Part shown: positions 39,201-45,200 of the stretch, piece by piece
How the letters are laid out: each line of letters begins with the position of its first letter
Position numbering within the stretch: the first letter of the stretch is position 1
Source: Escherichia coli O157:H7
GTDB lineage: Bacteria > Pseudomonadota > Gammaproteobacteria > Enterobacterales > Enterobacteriaceae
Reading direction: 5' to 3' (one strand)
Assembly (NCBI RefSeq): GCF_013167455.1
Contig: NZ_CP038328.1
Length of the DNA stretch: 64,000 bases
Program-made: the position numbers

Positions 39201-42200
39201 TTCTACGCCGACAGGCCAGGTGTTAGAGGTGTAGCTAAAACAGGCGACGCCAACGCCGCGGCGTAAATTGCCTTGCTGGTTCTGGCACTCTGCACGGCGT
39301 TTTTCCCATTCAAAGATTTTCCGGCCTTTTTCAAGACACTCCGGCAACCCTGCGCTGTAAATACGTTTGCCCGTGAGCGGATTAGCATCTCCTTCGCGTG
39401 AGGCGTTGCGTAAACGAATTTCAACAGGATCAATACCTAACGCTGTCGCGGCGTCATCAAGCATAGACTCAACGGCAAATACGACTTGTGGCGCGCCATA
39501 ACCACGCATCGCACCAGCCGAGGGGAGGTTGGTATAGCAGGTCTTTGAACTGTAAGCGTAGGCACAACGAGGATAAAGGTAAGCGACTTTATTTCCCCCT
39601 GCAGAAGCGATGGAGTGCCCGTGAGATACATAAGCGCCGGTGTTAGACAGAACATCCAGACTATAACCTTTCAATGTTCCGTCGCGGTTCACGCCCATTT
39701 GCCCGTCAATAGTAAAAGCGTGGCGGGTACGGGTTGCGAGGAAACACTCTTCACGGCTAAGGGAAACTTTCACCGGAATGCCGCCAAGCTTGCTGGTCAG
39801 GAATGCCGCCATTGGCTCTTCCAGTACATCCTGTTTATTACCAAAACCGCCACCGACAAATGTTTTGATGACTCGTACGCATGACCAGGGAATATCCAGC
39901 GCCTGACCAACCACGCGGCGAACAATGTGCGGGATCTGGGTGCTGGAAACGATGGTAATTCGCGAGTCATCCTCCATCCACGCCAGCGATGTTACGCTTT
40001 CCATGTGACAATGTTGAATAACGGGGGTCTGATAGTGCCCCTGTACCTGGTAGTCGGCGGCATCGATTGTTTGTTGGACATTGCCCGTCGACATCGTGCT
40101 TTGTTTCAGTAAATTGCCGCCGTTATGGATTGGTGCAGCGTCCTCTGCCAGCGCCGCTTCTGGCGTGGTGATAACGGGTAATTCTTCCCACTCAATGCTG
40201 ACCAATTGCGCCGCTTTTTCTGCCGTGAGTTCATCGCGGGCCACGACGATGGCAACGGCGTCACCATGATGACGAACATGGCGAGTTAGCAGTGCGCGAT
40301 CGGCGGTATCGCGCTTGTTTTCGTCAAGTGTCCATGCATGCCCAGCTGTAGCGAATGGGATATCAGGCACATCTTCCCAGGTAAAAATCGCCAGTACGCC
40401 TGGTAAACTTCTGGCTTGTTCATCATTAATACTTACGGCATAACCATGTGCGATAGGGCTACGTACATATTTCGCATAACACATGCCCGCCATAACATAA
40501 TCGTCAGTATATCGTGCCCGCCCGGTGACCTTAGCAATGGCATCAACGCGCATGCATGATTCACCCGTAGCGGTTGCTTCCCGCGCTTCCATAGAAATCC
40601 CCTCGATTTGAACATTTGGTTCTTATGGCAAAGATTTAGTCTAAGCAGGCAAGATTTACGCCAGAAACGGCGATAAGCGTTAAGGGAGGAAGGAAGTGTG
40701 ATGATGTTAAAAAAACACAGATATGATACGAAACAGGACCCTGAATAGGGGTAGTGATACGTATCAATATGAGTGGCGATAAAATCAATGTGATAAATTA
40801 GGATTATTACGCATCAGGATGGGAAATAGGGTAAAAAAGTCAGGAACTTCGATACCTCTACAGTGAATATTTTGCTGATGATACTTCCCTTTGCCAAATG
40901 AAATTAACCTCTTTCTCTATTACATCGTTTTTCCAGAAGCAAGAGATTGGGTATCAAGAGGCTGGCTGCTATGATATGGCGTCTTGTTTTTTAAGCGAGG
41001 AAAGATTTTGAGTGCGGGACGCCTGAATAAAAAATCTCTGGGTATCGTGATGTTGTTATCGGTTGGACTGCTTTTGGCGGGCTGTTCGGGTAGCAAATCA
41101 TCCGATACAGGAACGTATTCCGGCTCCGTTTACACCGTGAAACGGGGGGATACGCTATATCGTATTTCGCGCACCACGGGAACCAGCGTAAAAGAGCTGG
41201 CGCGACTGAACGGCATTTCCCCCCCTTACACCATTGAAGTTGGTCAGAAACTAAAACTGGGTGGGGCGAAAAGTAGCAGTAGTACACGTAAATCAACCGC
41301 CAAATCAACGACCAAAACCGCATCGGTTACACCGTCATCAGCGGTACCGAAATCTTCCTGGCCGCCAGTAGGGCAACGTTGTTGGTTATGGCCAACGACA
41401 GGGAAAGTTATCATGCCGTATTCGACAGCAGATGGCGGCAATAAAGGGATTGATATCTCAGCTCCACGGGGTACACCTATTTACGCCGCGGGTGCAGGAA
41501 AGGTGGTGTATGTGGGCAACCAGCTGCGTGGCTACGGTAATCTCATCATGATTAAACACAGTGAAGATTACATTACGGCTTACGCCCATAATGACACGAT
41601 GCTGGTAAATAATGGGCAAAGCGTGAAGGCTGGGCAAAAAATCGCCACCATGGGGAGCACGGATGCGGCATCTGTTCGCCTGCATTTCCAGATTCGTTAC
41701 CGTGCAACGGCAATTGATCCGCTACGTTACTTGCCGCCTCAGGGCAGCAAGCCAAAATGCTGATGGCGAATTAATCAGCAGTCAGCAGCGCGGCACTTGC
41801 TAAGAAGAGCGTAAGGTTTATAATGCCTTACGCATCTCGAAGCGGGCGTAGTTCAATGGTAGAACGAGAGCTTCCCAAGCTCTATACGAGGGTTCGATTC
41901 CCTTCGCCCGCTCCAATTTATCTTCACCTCATCAATCTGCCATTTTTGCTGTATCTGATTTTCTATATTATCTTAATTCAATCGCTTCAGACTTTTCGCA
42001 ATCTCTGTAACACTCCCCCATTTTTTTGTAAATAAAAAGCGTTTACGCAATGCAATCCTTTTGTAACAACCCAGGTAAAATACCTTATTTTCAAGTTGTT
42101 AAATAAGTGGTTATCTACGCTTTTAACAAACGATTGATGGAATATTTTATGAAAGGGAAATCTGCATTAACTCTTCTGCTCGCTGGTATATTTTCGTGCG

Positions 42201-45200
42201 GCACATGCCAGGCGACAGGGGCAGAAGTGACGAGTGAATCTGTATTTAACATTCTTAATTCCACGGGGGCAGCAACAGATAAAAGTTATTTATCGTTAAA
42301 TCCAGATAAGTATCCTAATTATCGTCTTCTGATTCACTCAGCCAAATTACAAAATGAAATAAAGAGCCACTATACCAAAGACGAAATTCAAGGATTGCTA
42401 ACATTAACAGAAAACACACGAAAGTTAACGTTGACGGAGAAACCCTGGGGAACGTTTATTCTTGCTTCTACTTTCGAAGATGACAAAACAGCGGCAGAAA
42501 CCCACTATGATGCTGTCTGGCTGAGGGATAGTTTATGGGGCTATATGGCATTAGTATCAGACCAGGGAAATAGTGTAGCCGCAAAAAAGGTTCTGCTCAC
42601 CCTGTGGGATTATATGTCTACGCCCGACCAGATTAAGCGGATGCAGGACATCATTAGCAACCCAAAACGACTGGATGGTATTCCCGGGCAAATGAATGCT
42701 GTGCATATTTGACAGCAACTCCCCCGTGATGGCAGATGTGCAGGAAGAAGGCAAGCCGCAGCTGTGGAACTATAAACAAAATGATGCGTTAGGTCTTTAT
42801 CTTGATCTCCTTATACAAGCAATCAATACTGGTACTATTAACGCTGAAGATTGGCAAAAAGGTGACCGACTAAAATCGGTTGCGCTGCTGATTGCTTATC
42901 TGGATAAAGCCAATTTCTATGTTATGGAAGATTCCGGAGCGTGGGAGGAAGATGCCCGATTAAACACATCTTCCGTTGCACTGGTGACCTCTGGACTGGA
43001 ACGTTTGTCAAACCTACTCTCGAAGAAAGACTCTGTTTTTGTCTCTGATTTACTACGCGAAGCTAAAGTCAATGAACTGGATGAAACTCTTTCAACAACG
43101 AGGTTGAACCACCTCATAGATAAAGGTTATGAAAGAATAACGTTACAGCTTGATTTAGGGGGAGAATCCCCAGGTTATCTGGAAAAAGATAAACATTACA
43201 GAGAAGCCGATGCGGCTTTACTTAATGTTATTTATCCTGCAAATCTTTCAAAGATAAACACCAGAAGAAAAGAGCAAGTTCTAAAAATAGTTAAAAAACT
43301 AGCAGGTCCGTATGGTATAAAAAGATACGAGAAGGATAATTATCAGTCGGCAAATTTTTGGTTCAATGATATTAAAACCGATACCGATCAAAATTCGCAT
43401 GCAAAAAGAGAAAAGAGCTTCATTCCATCAACAGAAGCAGAATGGTTTTTTGACTCATGGTATGCAAAATCAGCAGCAATTGTTTATAAAGAATCAAGAA
43501 AAGAAGAGTATTTGAATGACTCAGTACAATTTATGAATAGATCATTGGCCCAAATAACAGGCGAGAATATGATTGGTGCAAATGGCAGGAGCGTACCAGA
43601 AATGGCACTTCCCGAAAGCTATAACTATATCCACAAGTCGGGAACTTTGCATGAAGCGCCAAGCCCTATCATTCCGCTAAATTGGTCGAAAGCTTCAATG
43701 ACTCTCATGTTGAAAGAGATGTCCAACCTTATCAATGATGAGGGAATTAAATAATTTTCATAATGAGGCGGTCCTGGATTAAAAGGACCGCTCAAAGAGA
43801 AATCGAAAGGGGAGGTAAAAGTGATCAATAAATTACTGTTAGCTTACCTGATAGGTCTGGTTGTGACATCGACTTTAATATTTATCTTCTCGGAAGAAAA
43901 AGTAACATATCGGTTGTTTGCTGCAATAATTACAGGTTTAACCTGGCCGCTTAGTCTCATTCCTTCCATTATAAGTCTCATGATTCGTAAATCCGACTAA
44001 CAAGAAAATTATATGATCGATTAAGAAAAATAGAATCGAACAAGAGAATAAAATATATGCGGGGAGTAACAAAACACTCGCAGTGTGTTAATGAAGAACT
44101 AACAAATATGATTTGTATTGAAAATAGTTACCAAACAAGTGTTATAAGTAATACGAGGTGTGTTTAAGTAAAACATATCAACAGTTACAAATCTGTATAT
44201 GGACAGGATGACGTACTAGTGTAAGTGGCTGATAGCTATTCGCTCATAACAAAATCATTATTTTATAAATAGTAATCATCACTTTTTAATCATGTTTTTA
44301 TAGCAAGTTTATGGAGAATGAGAATATGGAATAAGGAGATGAAACATGATTGAAGAAGGGCTGTTACTTCCAATGAATGTTTTGCTTCAAGGACAGAAGT
44401 TAACCCTACTGGACCCTGAAATGTGGTTCTTACGGGGAAATGAAAACAAGGATGTAACCCTTGTTATTACGATTGGTAATAACCATCAAAAATTAATGGT
44501 AGTGGAAGATATATTACTGCTCATTGACCGAAGCCAAATTGAGGTAACTGCAGGGAAAGTAATTTATCATCCACTTCGCATTGATATCCTGAGTAAATTA
44601 TTAGCTTTTATAGATGAATCAACGGGGAGTGTGGAAAGGGAACACCATGAATTGTTTGCTGATGCCTTGCCCTTTGCATCAGAAGTTGTGCTATTCAGTA
44701 AAGTTGCAAGTGAAGCCTGGTTTTTAGCCACTTATCTGAGCAGCGATAATATTAATGAAATCCTGTTTCAGCATCTAAGAAAAACAGAATGCTATAAACT
44801 GGTTCGTTATTTATTATCGCAATCGCTCATACAGACTTCACTCTATGATCTTGGTGAGCTTTACGGCGTATCGTATTCACATTTTCGCCGTTTATGTAGT
44901 TATGCATTGGGTGGTAAAGTTAAAACGGAATTATGTGGCTGGAGAGTTGCCAGAGCCGTGTTGGAAATCATTGAAGGAAACAGTGATATGACAACTATTG
45001 CGCATAAATATGGTTACTCGTCCTCATCACACTTTTCAGCCGAAGTAAAAAGCCGGTTAGGAAAAACACCGAGAGAACTATGTAAAAAGTTATGAAAATA
45101 AAATTACGCATTACTATTATATTAATTTCAGTCTTATGCATTTTTAATGGATTATTGACTCCTGGTGCATATGCCGCAGCAGCGAATGGATACGTAGCAA

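Follow-up and report, generated by a model that had tools for sequence, protein, structure and literature searches.

What is the split gene beside glyU in Escherichia coli O157:H7, and what was it before it was split? In the 64,000-nt stretch of O157:H7 DNA analysed here (contig NZ_CP038328.1, hereafter the window), two overlapping open reading frames (ORFs) in different frames follow the tRNA gene glyU, at the edge of the island that encodes the second type III secretion system of E. coli (ETT2). We put a probability of about 0.93 on the reading that they are a single pkgA (ygeQ) gene, now dead, at the end of ETT2 next to glyU, broken by a 5-bp deletion, whose intact form is a probably exported protein resembling glycoside hydrolase family 15 (GH15). 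This pkgA/ygeQ pseudogene was already known from O157:H7; it is ordinary and annotated, and its weight as a finding is low: the frameshift is flagged in RefSeq, both ORFs stand in the 2001 annotation of strain Sakai and pkgA was named more than 20 years ago.

The split gene and its five-base deletion

The window is E. coli O157:H7 DNA; the 1.9 kb at the feature is 100% identical to O157:H7 ECP19-598 (NZ_CP066753) and 99.9% identical to many further O157:H7 genomes. Pseudogene coordinates follow the coding sequence (CDS) called by the Prokaryotic Genome Annotation Pipeline (PGAP) in the window-identical NZ_CP066753 and in strain 139. The features of the split gene are the following.

41842-41915, + strand: tRNA-Gly(CCC) gene glyU, called by ARAGORN and as tRNA-Gly by PGAP, the chromosomal anchor of the ETT2 island
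42149-43754, + strand: pkgA/ygeQ pseudogene, whole extent 1606 nt, from the PGAP 'frameshifted' CDS and colinear intact orthologs
42107-42712, + strand: ORF 1, 201 aa from a GTG, Sakai ECs3737, 606 bp
42149-42712, + strand: 5' fragment of 187 codons with a new TGA stop (42710-42712), by translation
42705-42708, + strand: deletion junction, ATCCG lost between 42706 and 42707, by alignments
42696-43754, + strand: ORF 2, 352 aa, 1059 bp, Sakai ECs3736/pkgA, in the native pkgA frame from F189 (42708)
42776, + strand: C>T, giving H210Y at a family-invariant His beyond the frameshift, by alignment with 24 homologs

The earlier note on this DNA described two overlapping ORFs at 42107-43754 as one gene adjoining glyU, and its coordinates are exact. 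Both ORFs align colinearly, end to end, with one 536-aa protein, and not with the distinct unrelated proteins that the note had named as the contrary outcome. Their frames are offset by +1, and the first four codons of the downstream ORF (MLCI) are out-of-frame sequence. The likely start is ATG 42149, because PGAP calls it and the orthologs share a conserved MKGK/MKRK N-terminus; the intact protein would therefore have 536 aa and not the 550 or so that the note had given for the two ORFs jointly. The note had also proposed that removing one nucleotide between 42650 and 42712 restores the frame. The interval is correct and the arithmetic of one nucleotide is equivalent, but the actual event is a 5-bp deletion. 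The comparison with intact orthologs that it had suggested as a check gave a colinear single gene with a 5-nt gap.

Intact orthologs have 1611 nt and 536 codons (for example WP_000676900 of strain Ec-042-T20-MAC), and in the alignments this gap is the sole length difference between them and the window. The nearest of the intact alleles is WP_000676915 from O55:H7 DEC5A; only the 5-nt gap at gene positions 559-563 and one C>T at position 628 set the window apart from it. The lost bases are flanked by AT on both sides, and due to this microhomology the position of the junction is ambiguous by 2 nt. Translation from ATG 42149 ends at TGA 42710-42712, after codon 187, and putting ATCCG back in silico yields a single ORF of 536 codons.

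The distribution of the deletion was followed with an 80-nt probe centred on the junction, which matched 3546 complete E. coli genomes. The deleted form (at least 99% match) was found in 296 of the 3546, and all of those among the matches listed are O157:H7 or O157; about 3250 genomes carry the form with five extra bases, at 80-95% match to the probe. With ATCCG restored, the probe found 99.9% identity in O55:H7 strains CB9615, RM12579, DEC5A/B/D, TB182A and USDA5905, in O145:H28 strains, and also in four O157:H7 genomes without the deletion (493/89, LSU61, F3113 and PV15-279). Intact 1611-nt orthologs are present in Ec-042-T20, 493/89, DEC5A, PV15-279, F3113, O145:H28 and O104:H4, and the 536-aa protein also occurs in strains of the enteroaggregative E. 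coli (EAEC) type. Because O55:H7, O145:H28 and atypical O157:H7 keep ATCCG at 99.9% identity, these alignments place the origin of the deletion inside the O157:H7 radiation, after the O55:H7, O145:H28 and undeleted O157:H7 lineages had split off, and they mark the intact form as ancestral. The deletion is thus a clean lineage marker separating typical O157:H7 from O55:H7, sorbitol-fermenting O157:H- (493/89), LSU61 and a few atypical O157:H7. Indels confined to a single assembly are common, mostly in homopolymers, and a sequencing or assembly artefact could in principle leave a false one. Here five bases are missing from sequence that is not repetitive, the other ~3250 genomes do not have the gap, and the junction is 100% identical across about 296 independently assembled complete genomes, which rules out an assembly error and leaves the artefact next to no probability.

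The identity of the gene is given by its place and its annotation. GC content falls from about 0.50 to 0.32-0.46 just downstream of glyU, and in this low-GC DNA (0.35-0.46, against about 0.52 upstream) the order in the window is glyU, pkgA, a GhoT-like gene, eivF and eivG, which makes pkgA a gene of the ETT2 island. For ETT2 of O157:H7 Sakai, Table 1 of PMC3977695 lists ECs3736/pkgA with 1059 bp and ECs3737 with 606 bp, labels pkgA as 'phosphorylase kinase and glucoamylase' and gives b2863 (= ygeQ) as the K-12 homolog; EC042_3075 of enteroaggregative E. coli 042 is a glucoamylase homolog according to PMC2808357. The window feature is the same gene as this pkgA/ygeQ (ECs3736 plus ECs3737; EC042_3075; the b2863 remnant in K-12), with agreement in ORF lengths, in placement between glyU and ydcX-like/eivF and in RefSeq annotation, where 42149-43754 is one pseudogene labelled 'glycoside hydrolase family 15 protein; frameshifted' in strain 139. 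In the window-identical genome the PGAP label is 'hypothetical protein; frameshifted', a name limited to four O157:H7 genomes (ECP19-598, 17B6-2, G5295 and FRIK1989). The sole extra of the window allele is H210Y (42776), and nothing essential is different. The T allele at 42776 occurs in 5 of 2486 complete genomes, namely the same four and one unrelated genome, so H210Y is a marker of a sublineage. A change at an invariant His is as expected for a gene no longer under selection, and we see it as a sign of relaxed constraint.

The protein encoded by intact pkgA

The residues that bear on the function of the protein, numbered as in the intact form, map to the window as follows.

42149-42214, + strand: predicted Sec signal peptide MKGKSALTLLLAGIFSCGTCQA, cleavage likely after CQA, from residue composition
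42518-42529, + strand: W124-L-R126-D127, GH15 conserved region 1 (substrate-binding Trp/Arg/Asp), invariant in 24 homologs and aligned with WVRD of phosphorylase kinase alpha
42942-42950, + strand: W267-E268-E269, predicted general-acid motif downstream of the new stop, invariant and aligned with WE of phosphorylase kinase alpha/beta
43611-43619, + strand: P490-E491-S492, candidate general base, invariant in the family, the role as base being a prediction

Database searches indicated a large and well conserved PkgA family of proteins of about 500-590 aa, among which no characterised member was found. Homologs occur in E. albertii (77% identity), Yersinia enterocolitica (60%) and Commensalibacter (about 55%), and also in Elusimicrobiota, Planctomycetota, Synergistaceae, Clostridiales, Bifidobacterium and Bdellovibrionales. 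When 24 diverse homologs from several phyla are aligned, ~80 positions prove invariant. These include W124-x-R126-D127, H186-x-R188-F189, W208-x-H210-K-Q-N-D-A, W267-E268-E269, G-G-E341-S-P, W434-F-F-D-S-W and P490-E491-S492. For intact alleles, the ratio of nonsynonymous to synonymous substitution rates (dN/dS) is 0.14 when E. coli alleles are compared with one another and 0.08 when they are compared with E. albertii. Because of these ratios and the about 80 invariant residues, the sequences indicate that intact alleles are under purifying selection.

Pfam PF00723 (Glyco_hydro_15) matches the intact ortholog with E=2.3e-5 and 23.9 bits over residues 94-401, which correspond to positions 16-308 of the 427 in the model; by itself the 3' ORF reaches just E=0.013. 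Of the residues that characterise GH15, the W-x-R-D of conserved region 1 and a Glu in W-E-E, the predicted general acid, are both present. E491 is our candidate for the general base, although no alignment tool placed P490-E491-S492 onto the known GH15 base. An AlphaFold2 model built on the family alignment (mean predicted local distance difference test, pLDDT, 90.1; predicted template modelling score 0.90) is mostly helical from residue 112 and has the (alpha/alpha)6-barrel catalytic domain of GH15, as a single barrel. In a Foldseek search with the model the best match was phosphorylase kinase beta (5e-11), then the GH15 isomaltose glucohydrolase 5z3c/7c25 (about 3e-8), followed by Saccharomycopsis and Aspergillus glucoamylases, a GH15 dextran dextrinase and then other (alpha/alpha)6 barrels; the probability was 1.00 for the GH15 structures 5z3c, 1ayx, 1gah, 6frv and 9ju0.

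At the level of sequence the nearest solved structures are those of eukaryotic phosphorylase kinase. Alpha and beta were the only ones found, with E 0.0015 and 0.05 by single-sequence search and with 4e-7 and 3e-5 by family profile, and no canonical GH15 enzyme was among the matches of either search. The WxRD, W-H-x-Q-x-DA and G-x-WE motifs align between the PkgA family and phosphorylase kinase alpha/beta, so that the glucoamylase-like N-terminal domains of these subunits (PDB 8JFK and related) are at once the best structural and the sole solved sequence match. Unlike them, PkgA stands alone as a bacterial protein: it has 536 aa and a predicted signal peptide, is without the large C-terminal regulatory regions, and keeps both Glu of W-E-E, where phosphorylase kinase alpha has W-E-R. 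With canonical GH15 (fungal and bacterial glucoamylases, Kribbella isomaltose glucohydrolase 5Z3A-F, glucodextranase, GH15 trehalases, dextran dextrinase) PkgA has in common the predicted (alpha/alpha)6 barrel (Foldseek E 3e-8 to 1e-4), a borderline PF00723 match and the lining up of conserved regions 1-3, the latter in a weak alignment. In that alignment, made by hhalign between the family and the catalytic domain of Aspergillus niger glucoamylase, W-x-R-D pairs with YTWTRDS, W-H-K-Q-N-D with WGRPQRD and W-E-E with DLWEE; it is statistically weak (probability 4%, E=0.009), and with a short template (439 aa) it serves as an illustration only. PkgA differs from canonical GH15 in having 11-16% identity to it, in that PF00723 misses the C-terminal third, which holds the general base, and in a distinct N-terminal alpha/beta subdomain of about 90 residues in the model.

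The GH15-like assignment is thus supported by the modelled fold and the motifs, and is borderline by sequence profiles. Judging from these, intact PkgA is most likely an inverting exo-alpha-glucosidase. The earlier note had pointed to a glucoamylase-like WLRDS motif, which is present at codons 124-128 (42518-42532). Its proposal of GH15 similarity is supported by the borderline PF00723 match, by the GH15 name from PGAP and by the fold match to GH15 structures, and the phosphorylase-kinase-like families that it had named give the strongest sequence signal against solved structures. The N-terminal signal peptide that it had noticed is also seen, as a Sec-type layout in the residue composition.

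The N-terminus reads MKGK-SALTLLLAGIFSCGTC-QA|TG. Its n-region is basic, its core is hydrophobic (Kyte-Doolittle maximum 2.26) and the residues at -3/-1 are small; in the model residues 6-20 form an N-terminal helix of low pLDDT. Several Gram-negative homologs have clear lipoprotein boxes, and Gram-positive homologs are without a hydrophobic leader. Because of the n/h/c layout and the lipoprotein boxes of the Gram-negative homologs, intact PkgA is probably exported by Sec to the periplasm.

The broken gene and its rival explanations

The loss of 5 bp (ATCCG) between two AT dinucleotides, at codons 187/188, took place in the typical O157:H7 lineage, and translation from ATG 42149 has since then stopped at TGA 42710-42712. 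The 187-aa product would keep the signal peptide, the small N-terminal subdomain and W-x-R-D, and would end in the first helices of the barrel, lacking about two thirds of it with the W-E-E acid motif and P-E-S. The downstream ORF, for its part, has no signal peptide, and the barrel's first third is missing from it. Since the 187-aa product is without the catalytic Glu, we infer that neither fragment can be a working enzyme and that the gene is inactive here.

Some points weigh against the reading of a dead gene for an exported GH15-like enzyme. The loss of function in O157:H7 is deduced from the truncation. Sequence similarity to canonical GH15 is weak: beside the 23.9 bits of PF00723, an NCBIfam scan that took in the intact protein, each of its two fragments and the 59-aa ORF next door gave nothing above curated cutoffs, its sole match being TIGR01577 (oligosaccharide amylase) at 15 bits, below the cutoff. 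A precomputed PF00723 match is present in some homologs, while many have none. In the searchable literature we found no report of expression, secretion or activity for any member of the PkgA family, and no functional study of ygeQ, pkgA, ECs3736/3737 or b2863. A binding rather than a catalytic role may also be possible, because phosphorylase kinase alpha/beta, the closest relatives of solved structure, act as regulatory subunits and are not proven hydrolases.

If the gene were not dead, the split form could be two functional genes, with ECs3737 encoding a small exported N-terminal protein and ECs3736 a cytoplasmic C-terminal one. Both ORFs are long and annotated as separate CDSs, and in about 296 genomes the split is a stable, fixed state. 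On the other hand, both align end to end with one protein that has a single barrel domain in the model, the split falls inside that barrel and parts W-x-R-D from W-E-E, and among the best 120 homologs listed no free-standing half stands out. The 3' ORF, moreover, opens with out-of-frame codons, its ATG at 42696 is without an obvious ribosome-binding site, and PGAP treats the region as one pseudogene, so we regard two working genes as highly improbable. The other way of keeping the gene alive is +1 frameshifting, leaky or programmed. ORF 1 ends ...CAU AUU UGA C, and 42707-42713 reads AUU-UGA-C; at this weak UGA-C stop tRNA-Ile could slip from AUU to UUU, re-enter the native frame at F189 (42708) and give the full-length protein minus R188. 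The layout superficially resembles the frameshift site of prfB, CUU-UGA-C. However, the site owes its existence to a deletion confined to one lineage, and no intact ortholog has it, which leaves no conserved recoding signal, and in the ~10 nt upstream (GCUGUGCAU) there is no Shine-Dalgarno-like stimulator, so that neither the conserved site nor the upstream element of a programmed +1 frameshift of the prfB type is found here. Once slipped, tRNA-Ile would be mispaired at the first position of the codon, the family-invariant R188 would be missing from the product, and the same window carries the further substitution at invariant H210. The heptamer AUU-UGA-C at 42707-42713 is probably a coincidence, and a rescue of the gene by slippage is very unlikely; even low-level +1 read-through to a near-full-length protein is, in our view, less likely than the selected loss considered below.

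A further explanation leaves the gene dead but gives the intact protein another role, as an effector injected by ETT2 to act on host glycogen metabolism by mimicking phosphorylase kinase alpha/beta, its loss in O157:H7 following that of the secretion apparatus. The effector proposal is that of Pallen (2003), as cited in PMC3977695 and PMC2808357, and the kinship with phosphorylase kinase alpha/beta was noted there too, according to PMC3977695. It is favoured by the position of pkgA, which in E. albertii as in E. coli lies at the end of a type III secretion island, by the eukaryotic phosphorylase kinase subunits being the nearest solved relatives, and by the broken sctT and prgH of ETT2 in the window. 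Yet a Sec-like N-terminus and lipoprotein signals in homologs are unexpected for a type III substrate; such an effector should have a non-cleaved N-terminal type III secretion signal and no Sec signal peptide, and neither the N-terminus nor the contexts of the homologs agree with this. Homologs with 40-60% identity are found in Yersinia, Commensalibacter, Bifidobacterium, Elusimicrobiota and Clostridiales, and no type III secretion genes lie beside those in the Yersinia, Commensalibacter and Bifidobacterium loci examined. In O104:H4 C227-11 pkgA is intact despite deletion of the adjacent block from eivF to eivJ, and a study of an intact ETT2 found no secreted substrates (PMC7058095). Taken together, the effector role is unlikely, and the Sec signal peptide and the spread of the family outside type III secretion contexts argue against the long-standing label of 'ETT2 effector'. 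The earlier note's remark that this is an unusual cargo gene for a type III secretion island was fair, though not new, as pkgA had been discussed as a possible ETT2 effector in 2003-2010 (PMC3977695, PMC2808357).

In the Yersinia, Commensalibacter and Bifidobacterium loci we found no conserved neighbourhood hinting at a substrate. In Commensalibacter oyaizuii, an acetic acid bacterium of the insect gut, the homolog (9711-11147 of its locus) is convergent with a GH32 (invertase/levanase) gene, the sole carbohydrate-related neighbour in the three non-Escherichia contexts examined. A 75-nt 'gene' beside the Yersinia homolog is not a tRNA.

The ETT2 island and the repeated loss of pkgA

Downstream of pkgA two further features were recorded.

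43764-43794, + strand: hairpin just past the pkgA stop, without a T-run, RNA fold -19.5 kcal/mol, z = -3.4
43821-44000, + strand: gene for a GhoT/OrtT-family membrane toxin of 59 aa (Sakai ECs3735, ydcX/ortT homolog), directly 3' of pkgA

The hairpin is stable and GC-rich (GAGGCGGTCC...GGACCGCTC) and separates the stop codon of pkgA from the GhoT-like gene; it was not called as an intrinsic terminator, no intrinsic terminator was found after pkgA, and a promoter scan gave nothing above the shuffled expectation. The toxin gene starts with GTG and has GGGGAGG as a strong ribosome-binding site; the annotation shows no antitoxin gene next to it. It stands in the same place in E. albertii (7687-7866 of that locus, Pfam Toxin_GhoT_OrtT) and was lost together with eivF-eivJ in O104:H4.

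The E. albertii pkgA (6001-7617 of the same locus) lies between glyU and the GhoT-like gene, eivF and eivG, as in E. coli, and because of this shared position the link of pkgA to the ETT2 island is real within Escherichia. The flanking order is identical (xdhA, actS, pkgA, ghoT-like, eivF, eivG), the proteins are 77% identical and dS is about 2. Core genes of E. coli and E. albertii are expected to be far less diverged than this, and the divergence of the E. albertii pkgA suggests an old or separately acquired ETT2 allele.

In the window-identical genome PGAP also reports an internal stop in sctT/epaR (54497-55264) and a frameshift with an internal stop in prgH/eprH (57509-58689), which confirms that the ETT2 apparatus of the window strain is non-functional. 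The lesions of pkgA, sctT and prgH agree with the 'widespread mutational attrition' that Ren et al. (2004) reported for ETT2, according to the summaries in PMC7058095 and PMC3977695. The eroded ETT2 genes of O157:H7 (epaR/sctT, eprH/prgH, epaO) lie in the same island as pkgA and carry the same kind of lineage-specific point lesion. In contrast to them, pkgA is not an apparatus gene, and it is intact in many strains with deleted apparatus genes.

In close relatives of the window strain the lesions of pkgA are repeated and independent of one another. A 1-bp deletion in an A-run at codon 384 is present in O55:H7 CB9615 (position 2492 of its locus), RM12579, DEC5D and TB182A and in 2013C-4465, five genomes of the O55:H7 lineage. 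The invariant Glu is changed by E341* in LSU61 only (position 2363 of its locus), and the invariant Trp by W434C in 493/89 (position 2644 of its locus), 2013C-3264 and two pig strains of enterotoxigenic E. coli. The intact ancestral allele WP_000676915 persists in DEC5A, PV15-279, F3113 and O145:H28. Further away, the K-12-type ygeQ is cut to 264 aa and followed by IS2, and phylogroup-B2-like genomes are without pkgA, 58 nt beside glyU being the sole match. Ten closely related O55:H7, O157:H7 and O145:H28 genomes have about 9 variable sites in pkgA, and these include three independent knock-outs (the 5-bp deletion, the 1-bp deletion at codon 384 and E341*) and two substitutions at invariant residues (W434C, and H210Y on an already broken allele).

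It could be that this loss was selected as a pathoadaptive ('antivirulence') change in the enterohaemorrhagic E. coli (EHEC) 1 lineage and is not passive decay. Such selection would fit because the lesions cluster in this lineage, against a dN/dS of about 0.1 elsewhere, and because pkgA is intact where the type III secretion apparatus has been lost. We nevertheless hold it to be rather doubtful. If it were true, the EHEC 1 lineage would have given up, as an antivirulence change, a protein that is exported and resembles alpha-glucosidases.

With the pseudogene itself already known, what still deserves interest is the PkgA family and the repeated inactivation of pkgA in the EHEC 1 lineage. The family is widespread, strongly conserved and biochemically uncharacterised, and among bacterial proteins it stands closest to the glucoamylase-like domains of phosphorylase kinase alpha/beta. 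Characterisation of intact PkgA could thus illuminate the former role of these domains in the eukaryotic phosphorylase kinase.

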